Below are positions 13,833 to 31,875 of a DNA stretch of 64,000 nt, piece after piece. This stretch comes from Schmidtea nova. Its lineage: Eukaryota. The notes under the pieces are model-generated. The model saw only the letters and a program-made list of their open reading frames with translations, was not told the origin of the DNA and ran no database searches. The DNA lies in NCBI GenBank assembly GCA_044892505.1, contig CM097883.1, positions 106,206,001-106,270,000 of the forward strand, in the 5' to 3' direction. How positions within the stretch are numbered: position 1 is the first letter of the stretch; every line of letters begins with the position of its first letter. The translations under genes and the position numbers were made by a program.

Positions 13833-13937
13833 TTCAGTTATCTCGATTTCCTCATTTGTCTCTGCCTCTTGACTTTCTCTTGTTTCGCTGATTCCAATTA
13901 CCTCATTGTTTCGTCCCCAACATCTTCCATTCGTTGT

Positions 13938-16900
13938 TCATTGGTCTTGGATGTTTACTAACGTCATCACGCTGATATCTATGTCCTCCATGATTCTCTT
14001 AATGAGAATTAATATTAATGCTACACATATCAATTCTGGTTGGAATGTTAATTTGCCCGCTGAATTTTTGGTTATTCTTTCTTTCTCCGTTCGGTTTCCG
14101 ATTCCTTCTTCTGCTTCAGATTGATTCTTCCCTTTCTCCGATTCCACTTCTGTTCTTCTCGTTGTCTCTTCGCTTCTTTTCCCAATCCATTTCTGTATCT
14201 TCAGCGCTTCTGTTGCTTTATATAATTGACATGCAGTTACTTGAGGTGCTTTTGGTTCTCCTCTCTGCTTTATTGCGCATATTATGTATGACTTTTCTTT
14301 CTCCAATCCTTTGATTTGGATGACGTCTCGCTTCAGATCTGACAATATACACTTCAGCGTGTCGTTTTTCTTCAGGTTTTCTTTCCAGCATATTCTTTCG
14401 TATACTTCGTTTCCTCTGATTATTTCCAGCGTGACGTATTGTTTCTTGGCTTCTCCTTGTCCGATGATTGTTATCAATATCGCAATACACAACATTTCTG
14501 GTCTCAAAAGTAGACTTCCTGTTCGTTTTCCATAATTCGTACGTTCGTCTTTCGTTCCTCTGTTTTCTCGTTCTTCTGCTTCTCCTTTCTTGTCGTTTCT
14601 TGTTGGCTTTGGTTCTTCCTGTCTTTCTTTTTCATTATCCTCTGTTCTTTTGTTGTCATTGTCTTCGTTGTTCTTTTCGTTGTTACTTTTGTCGTCGAAA
14701 TCTCTGTAACCACCCCCTGGTCCTTTGAAAATGTCGTCCTCGACATTAATTTCTTTAATCAATCTTTCATACGCTTGAACCGCGAGTGTGCTAGACTCGA
14801 ATTCCCGTATTTCCATATCTTTGGATGGTTCTATGTCTTTTAGTCTACTTTGCTTTATCGTTTCTTTGGCATCTGTCCATTCATTCACATATTTTCTGAA
14901 CAAGTCTTTCCATCTTCCCGTTCGTTCGGGTTCCTTTGGATTGTTCGTGAATTTCAAATCTCTTCTCTTCAGGAATTCTTCAACTATCTCTGGCTTTTTG
15001 TGTCTTAATAACGCGCTTCTGATACACCAATTCTGATTCTGTTCCATATGGTCATTGATCTTGAATGCCGGTTCCTTGGTGATCGGATTCACCCATGTTA
15101 GTAATGCTCTTGTCTTCTCTATGTCGTGTATCATTACTGTTAGACTGAAGTTCTTTACGTTATTTGCCAGGTATTCGATATCCTCTTGTTTATTGATGGA
15201 CTTTATGAACTTGATCATCTCGAAGTTGTTCCACTGTATTGCGATATCTATGATGGAATTGTTCTTTCCATTTTTCCCTTCGATTTTGGCTCCTGCTTCG
15301 TATAACTCGTGTAGCACTTTCAATTTCGTCTTCTTTCTTGCTGCGATTATCATGATTGTGTCTCCGTTATCATCAACCATATTCATATCTGCTTCGCACT
15401 TTACCATTGCTTTTGTTATTTCTAGCGCTTCGTTTTCTTTCTTTCGACGTAATGCCCAGTGTATCGGCAATCTCCCATCCTTTGATAATAGGAATGTTAC
15501 TGGCATTTGATTTTTGATCGTTTCTATGTCACTCTCGTTATAATCTCCTTGTGCGTATCTGTGCACTTTCTCTGTAATTGCTCCTAGTATCTCCAACGAG
15601 TTTTTATTCTCCTTGAATTCTGATAGTCTTTCCTGCGCTTTTGCTACGATTGCGTCTAGTCTCTCTTGATTATCAGCTTTTGCATTGAACAACACTGCTT
15701 TGCTTCTTATTCGCGTTTGCATCTGTTTCATTCGTTGGTCTTGATACACTGCTTGTCTGAAGAACTGTCCATATTTCAATGCTTCTATCAGCTCTTTATA
15801 TCGCTTGCTTATTTCTTTGTGCTGCTTTTGGATGTCATAAAAATGTTCGAAGCTCATATCCGGATTCCATTGCTTATCACACCATTTCTTGATTAATCCG
15901 AATAGTTCTTTCTTCCTGTCTTCCAACTTGTATTCTCTTGGGTTTTCGCTAACCCGTAACGTATCTCTCGCTATTAACACTGCAAGTGTTTTTGGATCGT
16001 ATGTTACCTCTAGTAGATGTTTCAGTAACGCATTTTCTCCCCTTATGAACACTTCATTACAATCTATGACCCACGAATCTCCTTCTGGTCGTTTCCACTT
16101 TAGCAATATTCTCCAGGTTTTACTGTTTCTTACTCCGATTGCTTGTTTCATGATCGATCCTCTAGTTAGTTCATCGATTTCCCACGTGGCATTTTCCGTA
16201 ATATACTTTAGTATTCGGTGATTTGCTCTGTCAATTGCATGATTCAAGAATGTTCGTCCTTCTTTATCCTTTGCCATCCAATTCGATCTGGTGTTTCCGA
16301 ATAACTTGATTATTTCATCGTTTCTTCCATGAATTGCTATCATCATTAGTGGAGTGATTCCTTCCCAATTCACTTTGTCAATTTCTCCTCCACCTTCGAG
16401 TATCATCTCTACGATCTCTTTCACCTTCTCGTTTCCCCCGTGCTTGATTGCATTGTGCAACGCGGTATTACCGTCTTTGTCTTGTAGATTCAATGTTTGA
16501 GGGATTTCCTCTAGCAGCGTTCTTGTTATTGGATGTGCTGTTCTATCCTTCGCATACTCCATTACATTTTTTCGAACTTCTGACAGTATATTGAAATCGT
16601 GCCACCATTTCCATTCTGGTATAATTTCTCTGGTTTTCTTTGCCAGTTCTTTGATATCTATTATCTCCCTTCGGTTGTCTTCTAGACTTGTTTGCGGCTT
16701 TTGTTGTACTCGCAACATATTGATTCTCGCCGTCTGTGATCTTGTCATCACCCGTTTCTCTGGTGATAGAGTTGCTGTCTTTGGTATTTTCCTGCATCGA
16801 CATGCATTCACGTATATTGGTCTTACCAATGGATTGTTCACCAATCGTACTCGCACATTATTTTCATTTACTGTTGTGATTTCGTATGGCCCTTTGCCTG

Positions 16901-19900
16901 GTCGTTGGAGTTTCTTGACCGTACCGGGTATTATCTCTGGTGTCTCGACTATCACCCAATCTCCAACTTTTAAATCATGTGCTTTCACATTCTTTTTCTG
17001 ATCATGCAGATCTTTGTAACTCTCTTGATAGAACTTGATGTTTAGTTCCGCCGTTTTCCAGATTTCTTGCATTCTTTCTTTGAACTTTGTAACGTAATCG
17101 TCAACCTCCATGTACTGTGATAATGGTGGTTGGTATTCCAAATCGATCGGTAAGTTGCAATCTCTTCCGTACATTAGTTGGAATGGACTTAGCTTTGTTG
17201 CCGCATGTATTGACATTCTGTATGCCATTAAACACAAGTTGATATATTCGTCCCAGTCGGTTTGATGTTTACTGACGTAATTCGACAACATGCGTATCAA
17301 TGTTCCATTGAACCTTTCTGTTTGACCGTTCGTTTGTGGATGGTATGGGGATGTTCGTAATTTCGCAATTCGGAAGTAATTCGTGACTTCGTCTAATATT
17401 TCACTCATGAAGTTGGTTCCTTGGTCCGTTAGGATTTTCTTGGGTGTTCCGTATCTGCAGCATATCTCTTCTACCAATATTCTCGCGACTGTTTTTGCTT
17501 TTTGATCTGGTATTGCGAATGCTTCTGGGAACTTTGTTAGATAGTCCGTAACTACTAAGATATACTGATTCCCCTTTAAACTTTCTGGCAATGGTCCAAC
17601 TACGTCCATTGCTATCGTTGCCATCGGTTCTGCGGGTATTGGCATTGGTTTTAGTGGTGTTTTCCACTTCGTTCCGACGTTCTTTCTTGTCGCACAGGTT
17701 AAGCAGTTCTTTATCCATTCTTTCACATCATCTTCCATGGTTGGCCAAAAATACTTTTGTCTCAATCTCCCGATTGTCTTTTTCGCTGACATATGTCCGC
17801 CTAATTTTCCGTCATGATATTGAGTCATGATTTCCTTTCGCCTATTCGCAGGTAAGCACATTAATCTTCGTTCTCCATCTTGTATCAATAACCATCCTTT
17901 TTCCATCACATATCGGTGCTGATATTTCTGCATATGTTCGCGTAACGCTTGGTCCTTGCCGAATATTTCTATTTCCCTTTCTTTCAAATACTTGCTGATC
18001 AATCCCAACTCCTCATCTTCGATCTGCTCTTTCCTTAGTTCGCTGAAATCCAGATCTTCCGCTATTAATGCACATATTTTTAGAGTATTCAGGTTCACCA
18101 ATTCTGGGAATGTAAACCTTGACATGCAATCCGCGTTTGCATTTGCTTTTCCTGCTTTAAACTTTATGAATGGCGAGTATTCCTGCAACTGCATCGCCCA
18201 ACGCATCAATCTACTTGATGATTCTTTATGTTGACCTAACCATACTAATGGTTGATGATCCGTTGTGATATATATTTCATGACCCCACAATAGGTATTTG
18301 AAATGCTTGATTGCCAATATTATCGCATAGGCTTCTCTTTCCGTGACTGAGTAATTCCTTTCATGCTTCCTGAACGTTCGACTGTAATATCCAATTACTC
18401 TTTCCTTGCCTTCTTCGTCAAATTGGCCTAGTACTGCTCCTGCTGCATATCCACTTGCATCTGTTGCCAACAGAAATGGCTTCTTAAAATCTGGATGGAC
18501 CAGTATTGGTGCTGTAATCAGCTTATCTCGTAATGTTTCAAATGCTGCTTGCTGTTCTGCTCCCCATACAAACGACACATCTTGTCTTACCAATTCTTGC
18601 ATTGGTTTTGATATTCCTGCATAGTCTTTGATAAACTTTCGATAATATCCACACAATCCCAAAAATTCTTGTATTTGAGTCACTGTCTTTGGTGGTGGAC
18701 ATTCTTTGACCTTTTCGATATTCCTTGGATCTGGTTCTTTTCCTTTTGCTGATACGATGTGACCTAAGAATGTCACTTTCTCTTTTGCCCAATCGCACTT
18801 TGACGGCTTCAGTTTCAGTTTCCACTGTCTCAATTTCACGAACACATTTCTGATGTCTTGTAAGTGATCTTCAAATGTTGCGGAGTAGATCAATAGATCG
18901 TCGATATACACCATGCATTGTTTTATGCCATGTGTTACGAAATTCATGCATCTCTGGAATGATGCTGGCGCGTTTGTTAACCCAAACGGCATTTTCTTGA
19001 ATTGGTACAGATCTCGTCCGATTGTAAATGCTGTCTTCTCTTTATCCTCGTCTTTCATTTTGATCTGCCAATATCCGCTTTTTAAATCCAGTGACGTGAA
19101 ATAAGCTGCTCCTTGTAACGTCAATAACATTTCATTTATGTCTGGCAGTGGGTACGTATCTCTTTTCGTAACTGCGTTCAATCGTCTGTAATCGATACAG
19201 AATCTCTGAGTTCCATCCTTCTTTTTCACCATCACCACTGGGAATTGCCAGGGTGAGCAACTAGGTTCGATGACCTCTGCATCTAACATCTTTTGTACCT
19301 CTTCTTCTGCCACTGCTTTTTGAGCTTCTGCCAGTTTATATGGTCTTAATGCTATTGGCGTTTCGTCCGTCAACGGTATCGTGTGTAAGGTTACGTCACA
19401 TGTTCCTAAATCCAGATCTGATGCTGCGAATATATCTTTATATTCCATCAACAGTTTCTGTAACTGTTCTTTTTGTCGTTCGTCTAACAACACACTGTCG
19501 ATTTTCCATGGTAATTCGTCTTTGCTTTTCTCGTTCTTGTCTGGTATTTCGATTTCGGACATGGGTGTCAATTTACCCAATCTCTCATTCTCGTATATTA
19601 TCTTGTCCTCTTCGTCGAAGTTTACCAGATTAATCGGTATTTCTCCTTCTTGGTTTATCGTGACCAATTCTCTTGCCATTGGTAATTCTTTCTTTGCTTC
19701 GAACTTCTTACTGGGTTCGAATATCATGTCTCCTTTTATTGTTGAATCGATCTTGACATAACACATCATTTCATGTCTCGCTGGCACTACTATTTGTTCC
19801 GCACTTGCTACTTTAACTTTCATTCTGCAGATTTTTCCTGTTCTGTCTTTTAGCTTCATTGCTCCTAGATCAATTACGATTTCCTTGAACAGGTCTGGCA

Positions 19901-22900
19901 TCAGGTCAGTTCCAATAATACATGGTACACTCAGCGATGGTATTACAGCGATGTACGTGTTGATTTCTGCCCCTCGATGCTTAATTTTTACAAACCATCT
20001 TCCGGCTACTTCTACTGTCTCTTGACTGCACGCGATTACATGTACATTCGTCTTCTCAATTTCTCCTTGGTTTTTCTCTGGTATATAGTTGATGTCGATC
20101 GCCGAAATATTCGCGCCTGTATCGATCATAGCTTCGATTTCTCTCCCGTTTATTTCTACGGTTGTTGTTAAGATCGGTCCCATATTTGTGGACATAACTG
20201 CTATCGTGTGCGTGTCTTCCAACGGGTCTACACTTCTGCATCGTTTTACTTTGCATCCTTCTGGAATTATCGGGTATATGCTTGTCATCGGCATCATCTG
20301 CATCATATTCGGCTTCGCTTTGTATATCGGTTCGTTATACATTGACTGAGGTGGAGCGCTGTATCTCCAATTCTCAACTGCACTCTTTTCGGTATACTGT
20401 GGGATCTGGTTTATATTCGCTTGTCCTCCTTGATCGTCATCGTCATCATCATTGCTTGAGTCGTCTTGTGTTCGATATCCCTTCACTCTTTCCCATAATC
20501 CTTTCCTTTCTTTCTTTAATTGTCGCCTTGCTTGCTCGTCTTGCATTATCTTTTTGAATTTCCTTCCGACATCTTCGTTTGTTCCTTTCATTTTTGCAAG
20601 TATCTTCAATAACCTCTTTATTCGATGTATGTCTTTTGAGTGTCCGTGCAACACCATCGTTTTCGCAAGGAATGGTAAAAACCCTACTACCATTTTCCAA
20701 TTCACTTTCTTTTCTCTCTTGTAGATATCGAAGCACGCTAACATTTGCGTTATTATTACTCTGACGATTTGTATTATCAATATAACACCCAGTATTCCAG
20801 CCATCATTTGTCCAAATATCAGGAATCTTCCCCACATTGCCTTCATCATGTTTTCTGTGGCTTTCTTGAAATGTGCCGGTGACAACAACAATTCGTAATT
20901 CGGTCCTTCTCTGTAATTCGTTCCTCCCGTTATCGTTACGATGTTTGACAGTAATGCTTCTCTTCTTGCCGGGAATAATATATTCTGCCTTGCTGCTTCT
21001 AAGTCCTTTGGACTATAGATTCCGTTGTTTGAGACATCTACGTCGCTGAACTGTCTATCCTTTGACAACTGCATTAGTTCGAATTCTCTTGGTGCTAATA
21101 CTTCGGTTCTTCCTGGGAACATAACCCATTTGCCATCTGGCTTCTGATAAAGCGGTCCGTACGCGTTACTACAGTTGAATGGATTTGGTTCAAATCCTGG
21201 TGGATTGATGATTCTCGTCACCGGTTGAACATATCGTACTTTTCCTTTATAATCGATTTCTAATTCATTTGTACATTGTCCAGGTTTCAACTGCGTTGTT
21301 GCTGCTAGCGATGCGTGTGTCTTTTCGCAAATATATACATACATTGCCTCTCCAACCACTCTTCCGAAATGTCCTTCTCTCAGTGGTAATAATGGCATCG
21401 CGCTATCTGGATTCGTAATCGCTACGGCCAACTTTGTCTTCAATATTTCCCGATTCAGTATACAATCGTTATTTATCAGATCATAGTACACTTTTTGCAA
21501 TGAGGCTTGTCCTCTATGGAATAAGAAATCCATTTTATTATTCACATACAAGTGTAGCTTGATATCCATTGTGTCGATCTTGGGTTTCGCATTCGGCACT
21601 TCTTGTTTCGACACGTATATTCCTGGATAATTTGTTTCGTATACTGTTGTACTGCACTTAAGGGTTGCTTTCCCTTTTATGAATCTCATTCCCACATCCT
21701 GATTTGTGGTTATCAACACTGTTGGTGTGGCTCTCATCTCTATTCGTTTTTCTCTATGATCTGGTCTCAATTGTCTTTTGTTCTCTAAAGCTTCTTTGAG
21801 ATGTTTTGCTCTAGCTTTGTCATCATCGTCCTCTTCCTGGAACGTTTTTCCTTGGATTTCGTCGAACTTTGCTCCTTGTAGCAGTTGTAATTGACATTCG
21901 TTCACTTTCGGTTTGTATACCAATGTTGACATTCCCGTTTGACACATACTCCTGTCGATTTTACACATGGATAACGTTTTCATTTCTCCGGTTGTCGGTT
22001 CGAAGAATGCTTCGTAGCTTTTCAGTTCGACTATGTACGTATCCATCACCACTAGGTTGGTTGCAGGTGCTCCGAATATTGGGTAGGTTTCTCCTTGACA
22101 GTACCCTTCTCCTCCCGTAATTCGTCCTGCTACATAATACGTCTGCTGTAACATCATTCCTGGTTTTCCTTTTATCTTGATTTTATCTCTCGTTGTTACT
22201 TCTCCATGTTTAAATAATGCTTCGCAGTCTTCCCCTTGCAACACGATTGGTTCTCTTTCTGTTCCTGGCATGACAATTGCTGAATAATGTCCTCTCCCAC
22301 AATAGAATGCGAATCTCGTCTTCTGTACCTTGCATTCATTCACCATTGTCTTTATTAGTTCTGCCTCTTGATACACGTGATACCATTGTTCTTTTTTAAT
22401 CTCTTTCAATTCTACTGGAGTTGCGTCTTTGCATTGCTCCGTACCTCTCAATGAGTACTTTTCTCCCAATTTCATTTGATCACAATCAAATACTTCGAAC
22501 GTTGTTACACCTTCTGTGCTTAACAACCATACTAGCATCATCATGATTATCGAGTTTAGATTCAACGTCGATCTTCCGTTTCCTTGCATCGTTTGTCTAT
22601 TCTCCATTTCTCTCAATACTCCCTCGAGTTTCTTTCTCATCACGTTAGAACCTTCTTTTGTCTGATTCTCTTTTATGAACTTTTCCCATCCTCCTTTTCT
22701 GAGGATATATGGTTCAATTTCTTTCTCGATAATCATCGCCGTATTCTTGATATGTCTTCCCATCGGACTTGACTTCGGACTTCCTCGGCTTAGCGTTAGC
22801 AAATTGTATATCGTATACGAGATTGCTACTAGATATTTGCTGTCCGTTTCTGCTCCGTTCAGTAACCTTTTTATCAACATCGTGGTTCCTTGCCAATCTA

Positions 22901-25900
22901 GATGATTCGATTTTGTTTTTGCCTTTATCAATTCCGGCATAATCGGTGCTATTGCATTGTGTAGCATTTTTGCCTTTGTACTGGGTTCGTTTATCCGCCA
23001 CAAATTCTTTAATTCTGGGTCAATTATCGCTAACACATCCATTATCGTTTTGGTGAGCCATTCTTCTCCTTGACAAACTTGATTCTCCTCTTTTCCTCTG
23101 ATTTCTGCGATTTTGTCTAGTTTCTTCAAGCAAATCTCCCATTGCTCTTGTCTCCTTTCTTCTCTTGTCTTTGGAATTGTTGTTGCTGGATCTATCTTTG
23201 GTCTCCCTCTTGGTCGTTTTTCCATTCCAGTTCCGGTTTCTACAAATCTCGCTGCTCTTCCGGTTTCTTCTGTAACATCTCTTCCTTCGTTCGCTCGCTG
23301 TTCTAACCATCTTTCCATTTCTTGAGTAAACTGTGGTTGTTCTTGTTCGTCTTCCGAATCGTTTACCATTTCTATGACTACCTCCTGTTCCACTCCTTGA
23401 TCGTCGATTTCTGCTGGTGACGTTATTGGCATCTCTATTATTCTGTCGAAGATATTTGCCGTTGGTTTTTGAGTTAACTTCGTTAGTTCTTCTATCGCCT
23501 CATCACTATCTGTTAGTATCTCATCGACGTCATACGCTTCTGGCGGTGTTCTCTCTCTCGTTTTTATTGGTGTTGTCCTTGCTTGTCCTGAACTTGTTCC
23601 TGGGGTCATTGTTGACTTCATCGGACTTGGTGTACTCATGCTTCCTTTCGCTTTCTTTTCCTCTTTAAACTTCAGTGGTTGACCCACTATTTGTGCCACT
23701 GTTAGCGTATTCATTAGATCCAATTGCACTGGTGTCAGCCAGATTTCCAAATTATTATCCAACGATCGTCCTTGATGTTGCAGGTGGAATGGTAGTTCAT
23801 ACATCAGTTTCTCTTTAACACTCTTCACTTTTTCGGTTAGCATCACCCAAAATTCTTCTTTTCTCTGATTCGGATACATTATCCTCAAATGTATTTTCTG
23901 TGGCGTTTCCTCCGCGAATTCTCGGTTTCTCCACTTTTTTATTACATCGTCTAGTTGCTCTGGACACCACTCGTTAACTCTCTTGTATTCTGCTATCGCT
24001 TTAGCTACTTTTCTCAAGTTCGTTATGTCTTCTCCATTTGAGATTATGAATTGTGCTAAGCCTTTTATTGTTTGTCTTTTTCCCCGAGTGTTTCCTCTCA
24101 ACAGCTCGATCAATTCACTTGTTTTCTGTTTCTCCAATTCTGCCCATATTACTGCAGTTTCTGGTCCGTCTAAGTCCGTTGGTAGTAACCTCCTTGTTAC
24201 CATACATATCCGTTTCGTATTCAGTTCATATCTGTCTTCTCCTTCCGGATCTTCTTCATATACGCCTCTTTTCACTTTCCAACATTTCTCTTTGTTATCC
24301 CATTGCTTCTCTACTGGCGTCAATCGTCGTCTGTTAAGATCCAATTCTCCTAATATTGTCTCCCATTCTGGCTTCATCTGCCAGTTCCGATAGATTTCTA
24401 CTATCTGCCTCAGCTTACGCATAACGTCCTCTTGTCGTTTCTTTTTCCTTTCCTCATCTCTTGGTGTTGCTCTTGGCACGTCATCCATTCTGATGACATG
24501 TATTGTCTGATAATTATCCCATATGCCGATTTTGTACGCTCGTCTCTCATCACGTTCGTTCAGTAGATGTTCTTTGTATTTTATCGCTATGTCATCCTCA
24601 AATTCGTCTTCCCGTTCTCGTTGCAATATCGTCTCATTGATGACCTCTACTATTTCTCCCACTTTACTATCTGGTATTACTTCAATTTGTCTTGTCTCTT
24701 CGTTCGGTAATCTCACAGTAATCATTAGATCTGATACCTCTCCTCTTTTAAACATTTCTTTTCCCATCTTTGCAATTAGCTTGTCGGTTTTGAAATTTGA
24801 ATGTCTCGTTTGACTTGTATCTCGTATGTTTTCGATACACTGTTTCAAATTCTCATACTCGCTTTTCGTCAATTCCTTTCGATGTTTCTTGATTTGTTGA
24901 ATGATCTGTTCTATCATCGTATTCAAATTCTCTGCCAAGATTCTTTCCTTTGCCTTCATCCACTGAGGTTTTATTCTCATCTCATAACACGTATTTGCTT
25001 CTCTGACGATTCCTTGTAGGTTCTCTTTCTTTTTGGTGTTGCATATAGCTAGCGTTGTTATTTCTCCTGGCCATATGCCTGTGTCTATCATATGCGTTCC
25101 TTTTCTCACCAATCCGTTTTCCGAATATATGAATTTGTCTTTGTACGAGCTTCCCAATCTGTCCTCAACCCATCTGTAAATTCCATCTGTCATTGGGTTC
25201 CTTATCCAGATTCTTGGTGAACACTCGTTTATCCATATTTGTATTACGTATTCGTTCAGTGGTTCTTTCAATAACTTCTCTATGAATTCTTGTATTACCC
25301 TCACTTCTCTTTCTTGTAACCACTCTTTATACTTCATCTGCCATACTGCTCGTATAAACTTTCTATATCGTTTCCCGTCGATAAACTCCTCGTTATGGAT
25401 TACTTCCAACGCGTTATCCATCAGCTTCTGAATTTCCTCTTCCTTTACTGACATCGTTTCTATCGTCTCGACTACTTCCATCTTTTTATCCTCGTTTTCC
25501 GGTTCCTTTAGCATGTCTCCTGCCAGACTGCTGACTTCGCTGTCGTCTTCTTCATCCGACAACTCTTGTCTTGGGTGTCTCAGCATCCCAATATGCGCGG
25601 TTGGTCTCGCTTCGTTTTTGGTAACTTCTTGTATTAGTTCATTCTCGGTTCCCGTTATTTCAGCTTTTCCCATTCTCTTTTCCAACTCGTCTATTTCTTC
25701 CAGCCGTCTTCGTCTTATTTTTCCTTTAAATATTCGACTGATCCGAGTTTGATGTTTCACTGGTGGGGGAATTTTCTCCGGTTCCACCTCTCTAATGATC
25801 ATCACGTTTATTTTCGTCTCCGTTACTCCCATATCTTCCCATATATCCGTCGTCTTCAACTTTACTTCTGGCAAATCCTCTGTTTGTAGGAATGCTTCTC

Positions 25901-27476
25901 TGGGTAGTTTCGTTACTCCCGGAATCATCTCATTTACTTTATTGAACAATCTTCCCACTTCTTCTTTTACATCATATTTGAATCGCCACACGTGATCATT
26001 CGGCATGATCACCAACATTCCTCTTTGTTTGATTCTCACTTCCTCTTCTTGATTCGTTTCTTTTTCTACTTCTTTTTCCGTTTCTGTTTCTTTTTCTACT
26101 TCTTCATCCTTTTGATTCTGCTCCGCGACTTCTACTTCCTGATTCACTTCTTCTTGTTTCTGCCCTTCGTTTCTTTTCTCTTTAACTTCTGACTCGTCTG
26201 ACTCATCCTGCTGCTTCTCTTCCATCATTGCTCGCATCATGTTGATCCTTGGATTTCCCTTTTTTAACTGTTGTAATCGTTGTTGCCTGACTTGTTCTTC
26301 TTCTCGTCGTACTCTAGCCCATTCTTGATTATGTTTCTGTTGGCTTTCTCTATTCTCTCTTTCGGCCTCAGCTTCTATTAACTGGATCATGTTTATCTTT
26401 GGTTGAGCAGCTTGCTGGCTTCCTTTTGCCATGCTTTCGATTATCTCGTGTAATCTGGATACCTCCTGTCTCAACTTAGCTTCTTTCATACTGGCTTCAT
26501 TTGCACTGCTGTTTGGGTTATTCCGTTGTTGACCCTGATTCCCATAGCTGGGTCGATTCCCGTAATTCGGTCTATTTCCACTGTTTGACCAACTTCTCTG
26601 TTGATTACAGTCTCTTGACATGTGTCCGGTTTTTCCACATGTGTAACACGTTTTCCCATAACATCGATTTTCTGAGTGACCTTTTTGTCCACACAGTTTG
26701 CAGGCTACATTCTGAAAACACTCTTGTTGCCAGTGTCCGTTTTTCCCACACGTCTGACATTGCTTATTCTGCCTGTCATTGTAACTATTTCCTCCACTCG
26801 TGTTCACCGTGATATATCCGTTATTCTTCCTCGCTGGCGGTTCTTTGAATAGTCTCTGCGAATGGGGAATACTCTGGTTCATATTTCTTTTTCCTTGTTC
26901 TTCGTCTTCTGTCGTTTTTCCCATTACCGCCGTAATTCTCATGTCATTCATTGCCATATGCAATTCGAATAGGTTGGCTGCTTCCAAGGCTTCGTCTACT
27001 GTTTTACATCCTTTGCATCCCACTTGTGCTCTGATGTCAGGTCTCCTGAGACCTCGTACGAATAACGCTGTCATTAATTCCTCATCTACTGGACTTCCTC
27101 TGTTAAATGCCAGTTTCGCCAACTTTCTTAATTCGCTTGCGTACACCGCATTTGACTCGTTTCTCCTTTGTTTTCTTGCTGAAAACTCATCGAATGCTTC
27201 ATTCAGCACTTTATTTATCCCAAACGTCTGTTGGAAGAACTCTTTGATTGCTTCCCACGTTCTGGGTGGACTACTTCCCGATCTCTTTTCAATATACAGA
27301 TCCAATGCGCTATCTTTCAAGTATAGCGGGATTCGATTTGCCAACGTTTCTGCACTCCATCCGCATATATCCACGAATATGCCAAATTCCTTTAGAAACG
27401 TGTCCAATCTACTGGCGTCTCCATTGAATGGTTCGCCCTTGAATTTTTCTCTCAGATCCTCTCTGTGATCACTCAT
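13938..27476 (-). CDS. 4512-aa Gag-accessory-Env-Pol-ankyrin polyprotein
   Basis: Single uninterrupted ORF; domains listed separately below. Confidence 0.95.
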   Translation of the reverse strand: MSDHREDLREKFKGEPFNGDASRLDTFLKEFGIFVDICGWSAETLANRIPLYLKDSALDLYIEKRSGSSPPRTWEAIKEFFQQTFGINKVLNEAFDEFSARKQRRNESNAVYASELRKLAKLAFNRGSPVDEELMTALFVRGLRRPDIRAQVGCKGCKTVDEALEAANLFELHMAMNDMRITAVMGKTTEDEEQGKRNMNQSIPHSQRLFKEPPARKNNGYITVNTSGGNSYNDRQNKQCQTCGKNGHWQQECFQNVACKLCGQKGHSENRCYGKTCYTCGKTGHMSRDCNQQRSWSNSGNRPNYGNRPSYGNQGQQRNNPNSSANEASMKEAKLRQEVSRLHEIIESMAKGSQQAAQPKINMIQLIEAEAERENRESQQKHNQEWARVRREEEQVRQQRLQQLKKGNPRINMMRAMMEEKQQDESDESEVKEKRNEGQKQEEVNQEVEVAEQNQKDEEVEKETETEKEVEKETNQEEEVRIKQRGMLVIMPNDHVWRFKYDVKEEVGRLFNKVNEMIPGVTKLPREAFLQTEDLPEVKLKTTDIWEDMGVTETKINVMIIREVEPEKIPPPVKHQTRISRIFKGKIRRRRLEEIDELEKRMGKAEITGTENELIQEVTKNEARPTAHIGMLRHPRQELSDEEDDSEVSSLAGDMLKEPENEDKKMEVVETIETMSVKEEEIQKLMDNALEVIHNEEFIDGKRYRKFIRAVWQMKYKEWLQEREVRVIQEFIEKLLKEPLNEYVIQIWINECSPRIWIRNPMTDGIYRWVEDRLGSSYKDKFIYSENGLVRKGTHMIDTGIWPGEITTLAICNTKKKENLQGIVREANTCYEMRIKPQWMKAKERILAENLNTMIEQIIQQIKKHRKELTKSEYENLKQCIENIRDTSQTRHSNFKTDKLIAKMGKEMFKRGEVSDLMITVRLPNEETRQIEVIPDSKVGEIVEVINETILQREREDEFEDDIAIKYKEHLLNERDERRAYKIGIWDNYQTIHVIRMDDVPRATPRDEERKKKRQEDVMRKLRQIVEIYRNWQMKPEWETILGELDLNRRRLTPVEKQWDNKEKCWKVKRGVYEEDPEGEDRYELNTKRICMVTRRLLPTDLDGPETAVIWAELEKQKTSELIELLRGNTRGKRQTIKGLAQFIISNGEDITNLRKVAKAIAEYKRVNEWCPEQLDDVIKKWRNREFAEETPQKIHLRIMYPNQRKEEFWVMLTEKVKSVKEKLMYELPFHLQHQGRSLDNNLEIWLTPVQLDLMNTLTVAQIVGQPLKFKEEKKAKGSMSTPSPMKSTMTPGTSSGQARTTPIKTRERTPPEAYDVDEILTDSDEAIEELTKLTQKPTANIFDRIIEMPITSPAEIDDQGVEQEVVIEMVNDSEDEQEQPQFTQEMERWLEQRANEGRDVTEETGRAARFVETGTGMEKRPRGRPKIDPATTIPKTREERRQEQWEICLKKLDKIAEIRGKEENQVCQGEEWLTKTIMDVLAIIDPELKNLWRINEPSTKAKMLHNAIAPIMPELIKAKTKSNHLDWQGTTMLIKRLLNGAETDSKYLVAISYTIYNLLTLSRGSPKSSPMGRHIKNTAMIIEKEIEPYILRKGGWEKFIKENQTKEGSNVMRKKLEGVLREMENRQTMQGNGRSTLNLNSIIMMMLVWLLSTEGVTTFEVFDCDQMKLGEKYSLRGTEQCKDATPVELKEIKKEQWYHVYQEAELIKTMVNECKVQKTRFAFYCGRGHYSAIVMPGTEREPIVLQGEDCEALFKHGEVTTRDKIKIKGKPGMMLQQTYYVAGRITGGEGYCQGETYPIFGAPATNLVVMDTYIVELKSYEAFFEPTTGEMKTLSMCKIDRSMCQTGMSTLVYKPKVNECQLQLLQGAKFDEIQGKTFQEEDDDDKARAKHLKEALENKRQLRPDHREKRIEMRATPTVLITTNQDVGMRFIKGKATLKCSTTVYETNYPGIYVSKQEVPNAKPKIDTMDIKLHLYVNNKMDFLFHRGQASLQKVYYDLINNDCILNREILKTKLAVAITNPDSAMPLLPLREGHFGRVVGEAMYVYICEKTHASLAATTQLKPGQCTNELEIDYKGKVRYVQPVTRIINPPGFEPNPFNCSNAYGPLYQKPDGKWVMFPGRTEVLAPREFELMQLSKDRQFSDVDVSNNGIYSPKDLEAARQNILFPARREALLSNIVTITGGTNYREGPNYELLLSPAHFKKATENMMKAMWGRFLIFGQMMAGILGVILIIQIVRVIITQMLACFDIYKREKKVNWKMVVGFLPFLAKTMVLHGHSKDIHRIKRLLKILAKMKGTNEDVGRKFKKIMQDEQARRQLKKERKGLWERVKGYRTQDDSSNDDDDDDQGGQANINQIPQYTEKSAVENWRYSAPPQSMYNEPIYKAKPNMMQMMPMTSIYPIIPEGCKVKRCRSVDPLEDTHTIAVMSTNMGPILTTTVEINGREIEAMIDTGANISAIDINYIPEKNQGEIEKTNVHVIACSQETVEVAGRWFVKIKHRGAEINTYIAVIPSLSVPCIIGTDLMPDLFKEIVIDLGAMKLKDRTGKICRMKVKVASAEQIVVPARHEMMCYVKIDSTIKGDMIFEPSKKFEAKKELPMARELVTINQEGEIPINLVNFDEEDKIIYENERLGKLTPMSEIEIPDKNEKSKDELPWKIDSVLLDERQKEQLQKLLMEYKDIFAASDLDLGTCDVTLHTIPLTDETPIALRPYKLAEAQKAVAEEEVQKMLDAEVIEPSCSPWQFPVVMVKKKDGTQRFCIDYRRLNAVTKRDTYPLPDINEMLLTLQGAAYFTSLDLKSGYWQIKMKDEDKEKTAFTIGRDLYQFKKMPFGLTNAPASFQRCMNFVTHGIKQCMVYIDDLLIYSATFEDHLQDIRNVFVKLRQWKLKLKPSKCDWAKEKVTFLGHIVSAKGKEPDPRNIEKVKECPPPKTVTQIQEFLGLCGYYRKFIKDYAGISKPMQELVRQDVSFVWGAEQQAAFETLRDKLITAPILVHPDFKKPFLLATDASGYAAGAVLGQFDEEGKERVIGYYSRTFRKHERNYSVTEREAYAIILAIKHFKYLLWGHEIYITTDHQPLVWLGQHKESSSRLMRWAMQLQEYSPFIKFKAGKANANADCMSRFTFPELVNLNTLKICALIAEDLDFSELRKEQIEDEELGLISKYLKEREIEIFGKDQALREHMQKYQHRYVMEKGWLLIQDGERRLMCLPANRRKEIMTQYHDGKLGGHMSAKKTIGRLRQKYFWPTMEDDVKEWIKNCLTCATRKNVGTKWKTPLKPMPIPAEPMATIAMDVVGPLPESLKGNQYILVVTDYLTKFPEAFAIPDQKAKTVARILVEEICCRYGTPKKILTDQGTNFMSEILDEVTNYFRIAKLRTSPYHPQTNGQTERFNGTLIRMLSNYVSKHQTDWDEYINLCLMAYRMSIHAATKLSPFQLMYGRDCNLPIDLEYQPPLSQYMEVDDYVTKFKERMQEIWKTAELNIKFYQESYKDLHDQKKNVKAHDLKVGDWVIVETPEIIPGTVKKLQRPGKGPYEITTVNENNVRVRLVNNPLVRPIYVNACRCRKIPKTATLSPEKRVMTRSQTARINMLRVQQKPQTSLEDNRREIIDIKELAKKTREIIPEWKWWHDFNILSEVRKNVMEYAKDRTAHPITRTLLEEIPQTLNLQDKDGNTALHNAIKHGGNEKVKEIVEMILEGGGEIDKVNWEGITPLMMIAIHGRNDEIIKLFGNTRSNWMAKDKEGRTFLNHAIDRANHRILKYITENATWEIDELTRGSIMKQAIGVRNSKTWRILLKWKRPEGDSWVIDCNEVFIRGENALLKHLLEVTYDPKTLAVLIARDTLRVSENPREYKLEDRKKELFGLIKKWCDKQWNPDMSFEHFYDIQKQHKEISKRYKELIEALKYGQFFRQAVYQDQRMKQMQTRIRSKAVLFNAKADNQERLDAIVAKAQERLSEFKENKNSLEILGAITEKVHRYAQGDYNESDIETIKNQMPVTFLLSKDGRLPIHWALRRKKENEALEITKAMVKCEADMNMVDDNGDTIMIIAARKKTKLKVLHELYEAGAKIEGKNGKNNSIIDIAIQWNNFEMIKFIKSINKQEDIEYLANNVKNFSLTVMIHDIEKTRALLTWVNPITKEPAFKINDHMEQNQNWCIRSALLRHKKPEIVEEFLKRRDLKFTNNPKEPERTGRWKDLFRKYVNEWTDAKETIKQSRLKDIEPSKDMEIREFESSTLAVQAYERLIKEINVEDDIFKGPGGGYRDFDDKSNNEKNNEDNDNKRTEDNEKERQEEPKPTRNDKKGEAEERENRGTKDERTNYGKRTGSLLLRPEMLCIAILITIIGQGEAKKQYVTLEIIRGNEVYERICWKENLKKNDTLKCILSDLKRDVIQIKGLEKEKSYIICAIKQRGEPKAPQVTACQLYKATEALKIQKWIGKRSEETTRRTEVESEKGKNQSEAEEGIGNRTEKERITKNSAGKLTFQPELICVALILILIKRIMEDIDISVMTLVNIQDQ
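15200..16500 (-). other. Two ankyrin-repeat clusters downstream of integrase (about 16200-16500 and 15200-15480)
   Basis: QDKDGNTALHNAIKHG, NWEGITPLMMIA, KDKEGRTFLNHAI, DGRLPIHWAL, VDDNGDTIMIIAA, LYEAGAKIE. Confidence 0.88.
16830..17830 (-). other. Integrase (HHCC finger, DDE core, GPY/F-like C-terminus)
   Basis: HDGKLGGH...CLTC; IAMDVVGPLP, TDQGTNF, QTNGQTERFN; KVGDWV...GKGPYEI. Confidence 0.96.
18110..18490 (-). other. RNase H domain (gypsy type)
   Basis: LATDASGYAAGAVL, NYSVTEREAYAI, TDHQPL, RLMRW, NANADCMSR. Confidence 0.96.
18740..19450 (-). other. Reverse transcriptase domain
   Basis: SPWQFPVVMVKKKDG, RFCIDYRRLN, LDLKSGYWQI, MPFGLTNAPASFQ, YIDD (18897-18908), FLGH. Confidence 0.98.
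19900..20180 (-). other. Aspartic protease (retropepsin), followed toward RT by a degenerate dUTPase-like spacer
   Basis: AMIDTGANISAI (DTG at 20115-20123) and CIIGTDL. Confidence 0.93.
20640..22560 (-). other. Envelope glycoprotein resembling chuvirus (Jingchuvirales) fusion proteins, located between Gag and protease
   Basis: Internal signal IIMMMLVWLLSTEG then FEVFDC. Cys-rich ectodomain (YCGRGHYS, GYCQG, VYETNYPGIYV, GRVVGEAMY..C, C.NEL.I.Y.G..Y..P.TRI, GIY..DL...I.FP.R). Membrane end WGRFLIFGQMMAGILGVILIIQIV. Family assignment from remembered motif similarity only. Confidence 0.78.
22670..23160 (-). other. Bcl-2-like domain within the polyprotein
   Basis: Strong BH2-like IEKEIEPYILRKGGWEKFI (GGW at 22686-22694), degenerate BH1-like GAETDSKYLVAISY, helical spacing, then a hydrophobic segment ~40 aa later. 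Confidence 0.65.
23196..23219 (-). other. AT-hook motif
   Basis: KRPRGRPK, containing the RGRP core. Confidence 0.7.
23685..24730 (-). other. Two ubiquitin-like domains (about 24485-24730 and 23685-23897) flanking a helical segment
   Basis: MITVRLPNEETRQIEVIPDSKVGEI...IKYKEHLL...QTIHVI and IHLRIMYPNQRKEEFWVMLTEKVKSVKEKL...LQHQGRSLDNN...NTLTV follow the beta-grasp pattern of ubiquitin. No diglycine end. Confidence 0.6.
26607..27476 (-). other. Gag: capsid-like domain plus three CCHC zinc knuckles (26607-26759)
   Basis: PFNGD...FL..F, LYLKDSALDLY, W..IK..F, RKQ..NES...YA.EL, FVRGL; CQTCGKNGHWQQEC, CKLCGQKGHSENRC, CYTCGKTGHMSRDC. Confidence 0.93.
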
Positions 27477-28354
27477 CCCGATTCCACTATCTTGGAATAC
27501 TGTACTAGTTTTCTTTGCTTCTAGTTCACCACTTGTTTCTGAATTCGACTCTTCTTCTTTACTACTCTCTGTTTCGTTATCTCTTGATTTGCTTCTTGTT
27601 CTGTTTTCCCTGACTAGTTCACTGTCTATCGTCTCTACTTCGTTTTGAACTTCTAGATCTTCTGGGGTTTCTTCTTGGTTCTCTTTATTACTCGAATTAT
27701 CGCTGATCTCTACTTGTTTGTTCTTTTGTTGCTTAGGCTTGTTACCTGTTCTTGTTCTTTTTGCTGCTTTTCTTTCGGCTTCCGTTAAGATTGGTATTAT
27801 ACCTGATCTTGTTTCTCGTCCCTCAATTTTGTCTATTCCTCAATTTCTTATATTCTCCACTGATTTTCTACTCTGCTTTTGCTTTGCTTCTTCTTTGATT
27901 TGTTTCCTTTGATTGCTCTGACTGCTAGATTGCCTTGAATTGTTTGATTGATTTGTTTCCTTAAAACAAATAATCACTTACACGATACGTCCCCGTTATC
28001 GTGTTTCTCGTCCCTCTCACGGGTGTAGTCATAATTCATGAAGATCCCCATTTTTCCCATTTCCCTTGATTTTAAGTCTATTTAAATTATCTATGCAGTC
28101 GTATCAATTATCTATTCTTTATCAAATACACCAATTACTTTTCCCCAGTTTCCCAATTACTTTGTCGCTCAGCGCTCTTATTATTCCCTTTACTTTTCTC
28201 AGGCTTCTCTGGCTCTGAGTTCAAATTTTCCCCTTATCTGTCGACTACTCTGTTTCTCAACTATTCGCTTTATTTCCTATTCACACTACGTTTACTACTT
28301 CATTTCAATTCTCATCTCTACTCACCTTTAATTCAAGCGACATCTCTCGTTGGC

Positions 28355-28816
28355 CTGCTGGGTTTTCTAGTCAGCGCTTTTAATCTCACCTTTTATCTCG
28401 AACTCTGTTTCTCTCAACTTCACTCATTATCTCATTAGCCTGCTGGGTTTTCCAGTCAGCGCTTTTAATCTCACCTTTTTCTTCTGCTTCATTATTCTCG
28501 ACCTCAATTGTCGTTTCATTAGCCTGCTGGGTTTTTCCAGTCAGCGCTCTTATTATCCACCCTTTATCTCTTCACTGTCGACTTTTACCTGCTCTTTACT
28601 CCGATGATCATCACTTTTGACCTGCTGGGTCTTCCAGTCAGCGTCCTCAATTTTACCACTTTATTATTACTCACTTTTATTCTCTCGATCTTTCCTGATC
28701 GTTGCCATTGACCTGCTGGGTTTTCCAGCTAGCGTCTTTACCACTTCTCCCGTCTTAACAAACCGGTTTCATTTTATTCTCATCGAATCTCATGGTCTGC
28801 TGGGTTTTCCAGTCAG
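28355..28816 (-). repeat. Six spaced copies of a 20-nt hairpin motif in the leader upstream of gag
   Basis: CTGCTGGGTTTTCCAGTCAG variants at 28355, 28440, 28524, 28622, 28713 and 28797. Confidence 0.9.
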
Positions 28817-29144
28817 CACCCTTCACTTACTCACTTTACTTTACTACTCCTCTGTATGCATACTTTCACCTCATTAGGCCACATAATCAGCTTTACTCGC
28901 ATTTATCAATACCTAGGTGCGCACCTTCAACTCTCTCGTTATTAATTCGGTTTCTTTCAACCCTTATTCCTCATTATTCGCTATTCATTTTCACTATTCA
29001 TCATTTATCCTCATTATCACTTATTCATTTCCATTATCGCTTGTTGATCTTCACTATCCGGATAGTTTTATACGTAATTTAGTCCTCATCTGCCTCACTT
29101 CGTCGTCTTTCTCGTGGGCTTTTACTCAATATTTTATTTCGAAC

Positions 29145-29780
29145 GAGAACTATGCTCACCGTTGAGAACTATGCTCACTGACGAGAACTATGCTCACTGA
29201 CGAGAACTATGCTCACTGACGAGAACTATGCTCACTGACGAGAACTATGCTCACCGACGAGAACTCTGCTCGCTGACGAGAACTATGCTCACTGACGAGA
29301 ACTATGCTCACTGACGAGAACTATGCTCACTGACGAGAACTATGCTCACTGACGAGAACTATGCTCACTGACGAGAACTATGCTCACTGACGAGAACTAT
29401 GCTCACTGACGAGAACTATGCTCACTGGCAAAACATGGTTGTTATGAGGATTCTGCTTACTGATGGAAACTCTTTGCTCCGGGGACTATGTTCCCCGATG
29501 AGAACTATGCTCACTGATGGTGACTACAGGAATTATGTTTCCTGATGAGAACTATGCTCACTACGATGACTATGTTTATTGATGAGAACTACGCTCACTG
29601 ATGAGGACTATGTTCGCTGGTCTTGTATTTATTAATGAGAACTCTGCTCACTACGGGATTTATATTTACGGACGAGAACTATGCTCACTATGATGTTGTG
29701 TTTTATGACGAGACCTACGCTCACTAGGATGTTATTTTTATGACGAGACCTATGCTCACTATGAGACCTATGCTCACGAA
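29145..29780. repeat. 19-bp tandem repeat (GAGAACTATGCTCACTGAC): 15 contiguous units (29145-29429), then degenerate spaced units
   Basis: Counted directly; unit starts at 29145+19n through 29411. Confidence 0.97.
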
Positions 29781-30478
29781 CGAAAACTCGAAATATCATC
29801 TCTCAGTGGTTGCATGTGTTGCTTCGGGATGTTCCTCCCAGTGGTCACTTATGCTTCTTCGGAGAATCTATTGTCGCGTTTCGTTAAGTTCTATCTTTCA
29901 AGAACTATGGGCAAATCCTTTCTCTTTAGGACCCCTTTTATCATTTCCTTTCTTTCAAGGAATTCGTTTAATCCTCGAGTTTTCCCTTTCGCTCGGTTCA
30001 TCTATTACACCCCTTTATTCTGTTATCTATTCATCGACTTCTCTACTTGATTTTACTTTATGCGAGCTGATTACGTGCCTTTCATCATATACCACATTTC
30101 TCTACTCATCTTACTCATTTCATTGCTTTATCTCTCTCTTTACTGATCAGTTTTAACATCCTTTTTTTATAGTTTTTCTGCGCGCGCCTAAACCTCGTTG
30201 AGTTGTCCCTACCTTTCACCCCAACCAAAATATATAAAAAGATCGCATTGGTCCACTGATGCACGATGTGGTGATCAATCACATCACAAGAGCTTTCCAA
30301 TATCCGCGATTGGCCCCTTTCTACACATTTCGGGTAAGTTGATCAGTTGGTTCCCCCCAATGGGTGCTTATCGGACTACTCGTGAGTAGCTCATAATTAC
30401 TTAGGTCATTTTTACCAAATCATCTTTGAACCCTCATAATTTCAATAACAACTGCACTTGCTCAAAACTTTATTTCTA

Positions 30479-30937
30479 CTACAAGTACACTGTTATTTTC
30501 TCGGATACGGGAAGGTTGCACATAGGACATCGTTCATTTATTTTACATTCATTACAGAATCGGAAATGCCCACATGGCAACAACATTATCTGTATCTTAT
30601 TCATTTCACAGATATAACACATCAGATATTGTCTCGTATGTTCTGTTGTTATTCTTATCCACTCATCGTGTTTTGTTGTTAACTGTTGTTCTAGCCTGTG
30701 GCACTCGATGTTCATCTCAGGGTTGTTTAATCTTTCTCTATACCATTGATATCGTGTTGCTGTATCCACTGTGTTCTTATTCTCACTTAAGCTCATCATC
30801 CTTTCAGCTCTTTCTGTGTTGTTTGTCGGTTCGTGATATTCTCCTACCTCGAGTCTTTTTAACTTTCTCGTTATTGTCTCCACTGTCTCGTGGTTTGTTT
30901 CGAAAAACGTTTGCATTTCTTTTATTTTGTTCTCCAT
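30479..30937 (-). CDS. Accessory 152-aa coiled-coil protein with C-terminal IAP/XIAP-type RING finger (no BIR)
   Basis: CYICEMNKIQIMLLPCGHFRFCNEC..NERCPMCNLPVSEKITVYL-stop matches the terminal C3HC4 RING of IAP/MDM2-like ligases. Confidence 0.85.
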   Translation of the reverse strand: MENKIKEMQTFFETNHETVETITRKLKRLEVGEYHEPTNNTERAERMMSLSENKNTVDTATRYQWYRERLNNPEMNIECHRLEQQLTTKHDEWIRITTEHTRQYLMCYICEMNKIQIMLLPCGHFRFCNECKINERCPMCNLPVSEKITVYL

Positions 30938-31466
30938 CCCCTGAATGAATTCTCATTAATTTTGTTATCGATTTTTATTTATTGTTTATCATTCCTATTC
31001 TATGGTAGCCCTACTGTTCGCTTTCTGTTGTTCTGTTTTACGTCGTTACTTGCGTATCCCCCCGTGTTCTTGAATGTCGCCCCGACATGATCATTGTTAG
31101 TTGCTCACACTCATACCATTTTCATGCACACTTTTCAGCATACTTTTACCTTACGTCATGCATACTTTTCATCACTTTTCATACTGTTACTCCACATACT
31201 ATTCATCATACTTCATTCGTCCTCATACTTCCATTCCATTATCATTCATACTTTCATTCTCATGCATACTTTCATCATGTTCATCAATCTCATTATTTTA
31301 CACTCATACTTTTATTTATTATTTTTCAACCCGATTCATTCTTGCTTCAGGACCCACAGTTATTATTTACTTTACTTTTCCTCGCTAAATTTAATTTCAT
31401 CCCGGTTCAGGCGCTCTAAACTGTCCGCAGATATCGAATTCACTTTTTCCCACAAAGATCGATTTA

Positions 31467-31484
31467 ATCCCGGCTGAGCCCCCA
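31467..31484 (-). promoter_or_regulatory. Primer-binding site complementary to tRNA-Pro 3' end
   Basis: Minus strand TGGGGGCTCAGCCGGGAT versus the classical tRNA-Pro PBS TGGGGGCTCGTCCGGGAT (16/18); lies just inside the 5' LTR. Confidence 0.9.
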
Positions 31485-31875
31485 AATTTATGCTGGTGTG
31501 TTGGTTAGATTGACAACGGAGATCCTTATGATTTTATACGTTAGGGTGATCTCGCCAACATAAAAACATTCCCCCGCTGACACCCATGATGCATCCCTAA
31601 CTACTCCTCATGTTGGTACTGTGTCAACGTTGTGAAATGACAAGGCAGGTGAGCAACCTTACGGCTACTATTCCCTTGTTTATTCACGGGTCCACCACTA
31701 CCGATAGAAGGTGTTTGTGGATTTCTTTCGGTCCCACTTATGCTCTTGTCTATTGTCCTAGGGTAATTTAATCTTAGCGCATCTGCTGTTCTTCATGAAT
31801 CCGGGTTTTAGTTATATTCAATTCTCAGACATTCCACAAACAAACAAGACAAGTCAACTCATTCATTTTATACAT

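Follow-up and report, generated by a model that had tools for sequence, protein, structure and literature searches.

The window analysed here, a 64,000-nucleotide stretch of the Schmidtea nova genome, carries a giant Ty3/gypsy LTR retroelement whose polyprotein includes a strongly diverged domain with a predicted Bcl-2 fold, upstream of an internal Env signal peptide. Its features are the following:

5303..34717, minus strand: giant Ty3/gypsy LTR retroelement of Burro type (direct repeats and Pfam domains)
30479..30937, minus strand: accessory ORF with a terminal RING finger (zf-C3HC4_3, Pfam E 2.7e-09)
13938..27839, minus strand: polyprotein frame of 4,633 aa (stop-to-stop frame 27839-13941)
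23094..23165, minus strand: additional helix N-terminal to the Bcl-2 fold, aa 1559-1582 (model helix H2-25)
22659..23084, minus strand: predicted Bcl-2-fold domain, aa 1586-1727 (VIA, Foldseek and sister-lineage profile)
22836..22847, minus strand: degenerate BH1 signature with TDSK at the NWGR position, aa 1665-1668 (alignments A2 and A5, bridged to Bcl-xL)
22674..22730, minus strand: end of alpha6 and BH2 (…PYILRKGGW…), IEKEIEPYILRKGGWEKFI at 22730-22674
22572..22673, minus strand: charged, poorly conserved linker from BH2 to the signal (44% amino acid identity, pN 0.32-0.35)
22500..22571, minus strand: internal signal peptide of Env (signal peptidase predicted to cut between …EGVTT and FEVFDC)
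20751..22499, minus strand: fusion glycoprotein ectodomain (PF24664, Pfam E 6.9e-71) and transmembrane helix (20825-20751, by hydropathy)
10593..12023, minus strand: accessory TRAF-like ORF with RING, TRAF zinc finger and MATH domains (Pfam MATH_2 E 2.9e-26)

The element and its relatives

The element is at least 29.4 kb long, its true ends being hidden by flanking N, and it is young; its direct repeats (5303-8514 and 31506-34717) have 7 differences in 3,212 bases. The polyprotein, whose first methionine is residue 122 of the stop-to-stop frame, is ordered as Gag with CCHC knuckles, spacer, Bcl-2-like domain, signal, Env, transmembrane helix, protease, reverse transcriptase, RNase H, integrase and ankyrin repeats. 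Other copies of the element have frames of about 5,080-5,090 aa, compared with 4,633 aa in the window.

Grohme et al. 2018 and Jurka 2007 are reportedly the works cited for the planarian retrotransposons Burro and GYPSM1. The window element shares with these (PMC6431247) a length of about 30 kb with LTRs, a single ORF of about 5,000 aa containing Gag with CCHC knuckles, a BCL2-like motif, an env in frame between BCL2 and protease, the pol order PR-RT-RH-IN and ankyrin repeats; layout and domains are the basis of its assignment to the Burro type. MATH/TRAF cargo, also characteristic of Burro-type elements, is carried on an accessory ORF in the window as in an element of D. tigrina (PMC6431247), in which that ORF lies upstream of the polyprotein, whereas ORF 10593-12023 lies downstream. 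For BIR (IAP) cargo, another trait of Burro-type elements, the 10 ORFs scanned gave no Pfam match, the one related find being the RING ORF; three of the accessory frames or pieces could not be assigned with confidence. Gene order and an HSV/gB-type env are shared with platyhelminth GAG-ENV-POL errantiviruses such as Smed_errantivirus_1-6, as presented in PMC13524379, by comparison with which the Env fusion glycoprotein appears to be gB-type; its start is most like that of Smed_errantivirus_5 in an unaligned comparison by eye.

The initial annotation placed a Bcl-2-like domain in the polyprotein just before the Env signal, which profile, predicted fold and position support. A BCL2-like motif followed by an in-frame env is already published for planarian Burro elements (PMC6431247, section 7), and the domain and its position therefore add little as a discovery. 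That review contains nothing on fold, BH1 or anchoring, and in the main text of PMC13524379, where "bcl" and "burro" occur 0 times, the domain is not treated. What is new here is structural support from a predicted model, conservation across eight lineages and an altered BH1.

Predicted fold, motifs and ancestry of the Bcl-2-like domain

By itself the window domain matches no Bcl-2 profile or solved sequence, and it gives no match to Pfam PF00452 (cut-off 31.4 bits). Close lineages match PF00452 at E of about 0.1 or not at all; sister lineages in the same genome score 20.4-30.6 bits, with some copies above the cut-off, and have Pfam-recognisable Bcl-2 domains at the equivalent polyprotein position. 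Sixteen of the 30 above-cut-off PF00452 matches inspected in the genome are element copies with the same layout. The window lineage aligns with the sister lineages by hhalign (probability 93.9, E 1.5e-7), profiles of the element domains match Bcl-xL at E of about 1e-8, and the sister-lineage profile scores 23.0 bits on the window domain, a value reached by none of 2000 shuffles (maximum 10.7). On the whole polyprotein this profile scores -0.8 bits overall and 14.1 bits for the domain itself; a six-frame scan, in which the polyprotein was scored as one biased sequence, missed the domain, and tiling recovered it. Word-indexed protein searches with the domain (against longer proteins), with alignment A2 and with the domain plus Env gave no match, a search of 1.84 billion representatives returned only two repeat-rich, unrelated proteins judged to be chance matches, Atlas gave one unusable match of 0.76 for the domain, and no Bcl-2 came up among PDB sequences searched with a three-row alignment of the window lineage. 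In a tree, the eight element domains, 15-23% identical between lineages, group together to one side of a branch with support 96/98, and a single origin is allowed.

The initial annotation proposed AlphaFold followed by Foldseek as a check, and both point to a Bcl-2 fold. The model built from 14 element-only rows (pLDDT 77, pTM 0.70) is a helical bundle around a central hydrophobic helix. Its best VIA match is Bfl-1 (6rjp_A, Z 13.8, rmsd 2.8, 139 aligned), and the first 36 rows are Bcl-2-fold proteins, the first other fold appearing at Z 5.7. Among the Foldseek matches listed from PDB, all belong to the Bcl-2 family (best E 1.3e-3, probability 1.00), and of the best seven viral rows six are named vBcl-2 proteins and the seventh carries no name; no Foldseek row has E of 0.001 or better. 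A single-sequence AlphaFold model (pLDDT 49.8, without a Foldseek match) was uninformative. In predicted fold the domain resembles both pro-survival proteins (Bfl-1/A1, Z 13.8; Bcl-xL, 12.7; Hydra Bcl-2-4, 12.7) and viral mimics (ASFV A179L, 12.4; KSHV Bcl-2, 11.6; BHRF1, 11.2), with which it also shares BH2, but it is just 8-16% identical to cellular and viral Bcl-2 proteins and differs from them in its BH1, in an extra N-terminal helix, and in lying within a polyprotein where a cleavable signal comes next instead of a terminal tail anchor.

The Bcl-2-like region is the one first assigned to 22670..23160 (aa ~1440-1655 when counted from the first methionine), but the predicted fold proper extends from about 23084 to 22659 and the first helix is extra. 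Bcl-2 structures do not align with this helix (23165-23094), at least a fifth of the VIA rows are confined to model residues 29-172, and six of the eight lineages have an LxxIA pattern in it. A 27-column gap relative to Bcl-xL precedes alpha4 in the profile alignment. A description of the window domain as missing alpha3 was dropped, as the model fuses alpha2 and alpha3 into one 21-residue helix.

BH2 is intact: the match reported initially was found at its position in the 4,633-aa frame, PYILRKGGW aligns with PWIQENGGW of Bcl-xL via the profile, GGW is invariant in all 14 alignment rows, and a custom-made BH2-like pattern has a single match in the polyprotein and turns up in 5 of 2000 shuffled sequences. 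BH1 is not. The sequence DSKYLVAI, said to replace it, is present at 22844-22821 (minus strand), but the equivalent of NWGR is TDSK, one residue earlier than DSKY. The glycine is lost in all eight lineages (S, N, D or E instead) and the tryptophan in 13 of 14 rows; a basic residue is retained at the arginine position in six of eight lineages, lysine in the window when it is aligned to sister lineages and to Bcl-xL. Mutagenesis of Bcl-2 and Bcl-xL indicates that the BH1 glycine matters for BH3 binding, and its loss throughout the lineages makes classical BH3 binding by the element domain doubtful. The altered BH1 likewise argues for caution about anti-apoptotic activity. BH motifs may be absent from viral Bcl-2 members, according to passages of PMC7022251. 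An NWDR at BH1 in locus L037 was set aside, since this copy is disrupted and L070, an intact relative of it, has NRDR. Complex prediction for the domain and L090, a Bak-like BH3 segment of the host, scored 0.00 with the alignment not used and speaks neither for nor against binding.

The domain is under purifying selection (pN 0.147 and pS 0.806 over 163 codons, quoted because dS is saturated), and at 72% amino acid identity (pN about 0.15) it is better conserved than the linker. Selection is no stronger on the domain than on its flanks (pN 0.15-0.19) and thus does not single it out.

The Env signal as a possible membrane tether

Signal-peptidase cleavage follows a rule of small residues at positions -3 and -1. 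In all eight lineages such residues follow the hydrophobic core and net positive charge precedes it, a pattern with the n-, h- and c-regions of a cleavable ER signal peptide, which passages of PMC4457021 define as a positive n-region, an h-region of 6-15 residues and a polar c-region with small residues. The segment, which follows after 39 residues and continues into Env, had been called the Env signal, and it does lie (22571-22500) where the Pfam viral fusion-glycoprotein model begins, position 4 of PF24664 starting within its core. No methionine separates BH2 from the core in two of the eight lineages, which favours an internal signal. Three Bcl-2-like loci of host type (L038, L052 and L055) have tails that finish with RK-stop some 20 residues past BH2, unlike the element with its linker of 30-46 residues and short core. 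From these patterns the segment looks like the cleavable signal peptide of Env itself, not a Bcl-2 tail.

The initial proposal that one segment serves two proteins is nevertheless reasonable topologically and consistent with the cleavage pattern conserved in eight of eight lineages, and it is plausible that the signal also anchors the Bcl-2-like domain. The internal signal would thread Env into the ER lumen during translation, and the later transmembrane helix would return protease, reverse transcriptase and integrase to the cytosol. Signal peptidase, cutting before FEVFDC, would leave a Gag…Bcl-2–linker–signal product tethered to the ER, at least briefly, and directed there rather than to mitochondria. 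A transient tether of this kind is very probable. A lasting one is somewhat doubtful: the signal segment may be removed afterwards, and the element protease or signal peptide peptidase may release the product. The principle would be that of a virus whose internal glycoprotein signal peptide is the C-terminal membrane tether of an upstream cytosolic protein; that protein is a capsid matured by signal peptide peptidase, whereas here it would be a Gag precursor ending in a predicted Bcl-2 fold. Among titles and beginnings of abstracts, no paper was found on signal-peptide anchoring or on the domain's structure; Grohme et al. 2018, Lee et al. 2026 or their supplements may treat the BCL2-like domain more deeply.

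Possible actions on the host cell

The reading that we moderately favour is that the diverged, predicted Bcl-2-fold domain of this Burro-type polyprotein is held at the cytosolic face of the ER by the Env signal and promotes host-cell survival during element expression. A gene of the Bcl-2 family would have been taken up a single time by an ancestral element and placed before env, and the domain would now act on host death or stress signalling, as it quite likely does, probably without an intact classical BH1 groove. The TRAF and RING cargo of the element is a fitting context for this reading. A more specific form, in which a groove rebuilt after loss of the BH1 glycine, with the extra N-terminal helix being BH3-like, makes the domain a working regulator of death or signalling and the cleaved Env signal stays as its anchor, giving one ER-anchored Bcl-2 mimic per envelope protein, is unlikely.

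About as improbable is a domain that has lost BH3 binding and, like poxviral A52, B14 and A46, uses a different surface to influence innate or NF-kB-type signalling, in concert with the TRAF and ankyrin cargo. The lost BH1 glycine and tryptophan, the gap before alpha4, the TRAF and ankyrin domains in the same element and the existence of Bcl-2-fold NF-kB inhibitors (passages of PMC7022251) are consistent with such a role, but the VIA scores are nearer to pro-survival Bfl-1 and Bcl-xL than to A52 (8.0), B14 (6.3) and A46 (5.7), a basic residue persists at the BH1 arginine position in most lineages, and the same passages state that this activity is not found outside poxviruses.

We give equally low credence to a classical anti-apoptotic mimic that sequesters host Bak/Bax in its groove and keeps the cleaved Env signal as its true tail anchor. 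The order of domain, linker and hydrophobic segment is maintained in eight of eight lineages, and in a single event, the apparent recombinant L021, the signal goes with the Bcl-2 side, which is 59% identical to the window, rather than with the Env ectodomain, which is 98% identical; membrane attachment is also important for many vBcl-2 proteins (PMC7022251). Yet the segment aligns with the start of a stand-alone viral glycoprotein model, so that the signal likely came with env, its core is short and lacks a basic C-terminal flank in the window lineage, BH1 is degenerate, and signal peptide peptidase commonly makes further cuts in cleaved signals (passages of PMC4457021). Least probable is a role within the Gag precursor as a structural spacer or as a matrix-like scaffold near the membrane that couples Gag to Env at the ER and leaves host pathways unaffected. 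Such a role would suit the position beside the tether, the divergence among lineages and the constraint equal to that of the flanks, but sits poorly with the other death- or signalling-related cargo and with the invariant GGW, although the latter may be a folding constraint.

Whichever action applies, a motif annotation becomes a testable target supported by predicted structure, in a domain-linker-signal-Env layout shared by eight lineages of one genome. If the favoured survival role is correct, viral Bcl-2 mimicry, so far reported chiefly in large DNA viruses (PMC7022251), would extend to retroelements. An IAP-like cargo of Burro1 reportedly protects planarian stem cells against apoptosis (passages of PMC13465017, citing Lee et al. 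2026), and a further survival factor, of Bcl-2 type and with its production tied to that of the envelope, would therefore bear on the persistence of such elements in stem cells.

Bcl-2 homology through sister lineages

The Bcl-2-like feature lies in the polyprotein of a Burro-type giant Ty3/gypsy element, a 4,633-aa stop-to-stop frame (27839-13941, minus strand), and belongs to an already published kind, a BCL2-like motif followed by an in-frame env having been reported for Burro (PMC6431247). This likeness to the planarian Burro elements suggests a planarian host. The motifs that the initial annotation quoted are present in the window where it had placed them, and a BH2-like pattern, by our own definition, has a single match in the polyprotein and turns up in 5 of 2000 shuffles. 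Taken alone, the window domain matches neither Pfam Bcl-2 (PF00452) nor sequences of solved structures, so that the Bcl-2 reading needed a bridge through relatives; a single-sequence structure model of the domain was unusable.

Sister lineages were found in genome G000, where a PF00452 search scored 150 of 1,679 candidates. The best 30, every one above cut-off, were inspected, and 14 resemble host genes or relics. The remaining 16 come from copies of other LTR elements; after the match, each of these has a linker, then a hydrophobic segment and then the Env start that the window has. Additional searches brought the element lineages to eight: W1 (that of the window), W2, W3, S1-S3, T1 and T2. 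In S1-S3 the frame was followed from Gag across Env as far as RT, and in T1 and T2 just around the Env start. Of 14 aligned rows, twelve reach E <=1 against PF00452 (best 2.1e-8), the exceptions being those of the window and of locus L021. Searches with profiles made from the element domains recover Bcl-xL (E ~1e-8), and hhalign of the window lineage against its sisters gives a probability of 93.9. A sister profile built without the window lineage gives the window domain 23.0 bits, compared with 10.7 for the best shuffle (2000 made, 1,968 scored) and -0.1 for the reversed sequence. When the polyprotein is scanned in tiles, the best ten of 206 scored rows are tiles over the domain region. Run on the whole polyprotein, the profile scores -0.8 overall, which counts against homology, with 14.1 bits for the domain (aa 1586-1729).

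The domain is 72% identical to those of loci L021 and L024, with pN ~0.15 and pS 0.77-0.81 over 163 codons. Its flanks are similarly constrained, and the linker between BH2 and the signal alone is relaxed (44% identity, pN 0.32-0.35 against the same loci). In a tree of 67 columns with ten host-type sequences, in which long branches were flagged, the eight element domains fall on one side of a branch (96/98), a topology that allows, without proving, a single capture by an element ancestor. Over aa 1250-2100, L024 is ~70% identical to the window throughout; L021 is ~70% identical upstream and 98% in Env, which points to recombination between lineages close to where mature Env begins.

Two exons of one Bak-like host gene with a clear BH3 motif and compatible splice phases were seen at L090:896-1078 and L087:2-220 (both minus strand).

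Predicted fold and the BH1 region

The Bcl-2 fold proposed for the domain is well supported as a prediction. From an alignment limited to 14 element-derived rows, without any cellular Bcl-2, AlphaFold returned a model with pLDDT 77 and pTM 0.70. All PDB chains that Foldseek listed belong to the Bcl-2 family (best E 1.3e-3), and vBcl-2 proteins came first in a viral library (best E 0.014). A VIA comparison with 48,161 chains placed Bfl-1 at the top (Z 13.8, rmsd 2.8, 139 aligned), although helical models may reach Z ~13 through arrangement alone. Bcl-2-fold proteins fill the initial 36 rows, and the best other fold reaches Z 5.7; because this gap agrees with the sequence bridge, a Bcl-2 fold is favoured despite that caveat. 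The fold does not include the first helix (aa 1559-1582), which carries, in six of eight lineages, an LxxIA pattern that we take to be loosely BH3-like.

The initial annotation had BH1 NWGR replaced by DSKYLVAI. BH1 is indeed degenerate in the window, but alignment through the sisters and Bcl-xL places NWGR opposite TDSK rather than DSKY. The Arg position retains Lys or Arg in six of eight lineages, and all eight have S, N, D or E in place of the Gly. Since mutagenesis has shown that BH3 binding by Bcl-2 and Bcl-xL depends on this Gly, classical in-groove BH3 activity is uncertain. Viral Bcl-2 members may be without BH motifs, and there are poxviral Bcl-2 folds that act on NF-kB without use of the groove (PMC7022251).

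The Env signal as a possible anchor

It had also been proposed that the cleaved Env signal anchors the Bcl-2 mimic, one segment serving two proteins. The Pfam viral fusion glycoprotein model (PF24664) begins inside the hydrophobic segment, with position 4 at aa 1764 in the window and position 5 in lineage T, and the segment thus likely came with env. In all eight lineages, basic residues precede it and small residues occupy -3 and -1 of an aligned site just before the first Env cysteine (VTT/F in the window, ATA/F in W2 and W3, and GNA/M, STG/M, CTG/M and TTS/L in others, the slash marking the site). The distance from the BH2 Trp to the start of the uncharged stretch is 30-46 residues. Tails of three host-type loci begin ~20 residues past BH2 and end in RK-stop. 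The window has a short core of marginal hydrophobicity (Kyte-Doolittle mean over the best 19 residues, 1.52). Two lineages lack any Met from BH2 to the core, so that an internal signal is favoured over a separate start; in the window, three Mets lie in this interval.

With this signal and one further TM helix (aa 2339-2363), Gag and Bcl-2 would be cytosolic, Env luminal and Pol cytosolic. Almost automatically, the upstream product would thereby be tethered to the ER transiently, in a way comparable to hepatitis C core-E1. Signal peptide peptidase often makes a further cut in cleaved signals (PMC4457021), and the element has its own protease, so that the tether need not be a lasting one. The dual-use anchor, not described in the literature searched, is plausible in its transient form and putative in its strong, lasting form.

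Element structure and other cargo

Direct repeats at 5303-8514 and 31506-34717 have outer ends that reach N, so that the element measures at least 29.4 kb, and differ at only 7 of 3,212 bases, which indicates a young element. The Pfam order in the polyprotein is CCHC knuckles, viral fusion glycoprotein (PF24664, E 6.9e-71), protease, RT, RNase H, integrase and ankyrin repeats; a TRAF-like ORF and a RING ORF occur in the same element. The domain is multicopy: of the 150 scored among 1,174 candidates, 138 have an identity of 78-100% and the other 12 one of 65-67%. Further features are:

13938-13940, minus strand: TGA stop of the polyprotein frame
12570-13937, minus strand: 455-aa frame after the polyprotein, in the same register
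14519-14463, 14057-14001 and 12570-13937, minus strand: two more hydrophobic segments near the polyprotein end, with Cys-containing repeats and a TM helix after them
32635-33270 and 31876-32457, also 6432-7091, minus strand: ORFs (211 and 193 aa) within the LTR that lack a confident Pfam match
29143-29690: tandem array, period ~19 bases, between 5' LTR and gag
1687-4674, plus strand: protein-primed-type DNA polymerase B, 995 aa, Polinton/Maverick-like (PF03175, E 1.5e-32), adjoining the element

Since many other copies have open frames of ~5,080-5,090 aa, the window copy is likely interrupted at the TGA. The internal-signal strategy may be reused for receptor-like cargo at the polyprotein end. 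As a lead only, Atlas returned fibronectin type III membrane proteins for this region (score 0.88).

An AT-hook-like RPRGRP/RGRGRP motif lies just before the domain (~23225-23195, minus strand) and is present in the W lineages and S1. PMC13524379 lists six S. mediterranea errantiviruses and describes a GAG-ENV-POL order in flatworms, its main text making no mention of Bcl. Functional work on Burro1 IAP-like cargo is cited in PMC13465017, and BURRO1 transcripts are under PIWI control according to PMC8532177. Upstream of the domain, a ubiquitin/SUMO-like stretch was seen by eye (~23900-23700, minus strand; no Pfam match in the window), a feature noted for Burro (PMC6431247); it is also seen in L069-L071, L076 and L077, and apparently in two copies in lineage T.
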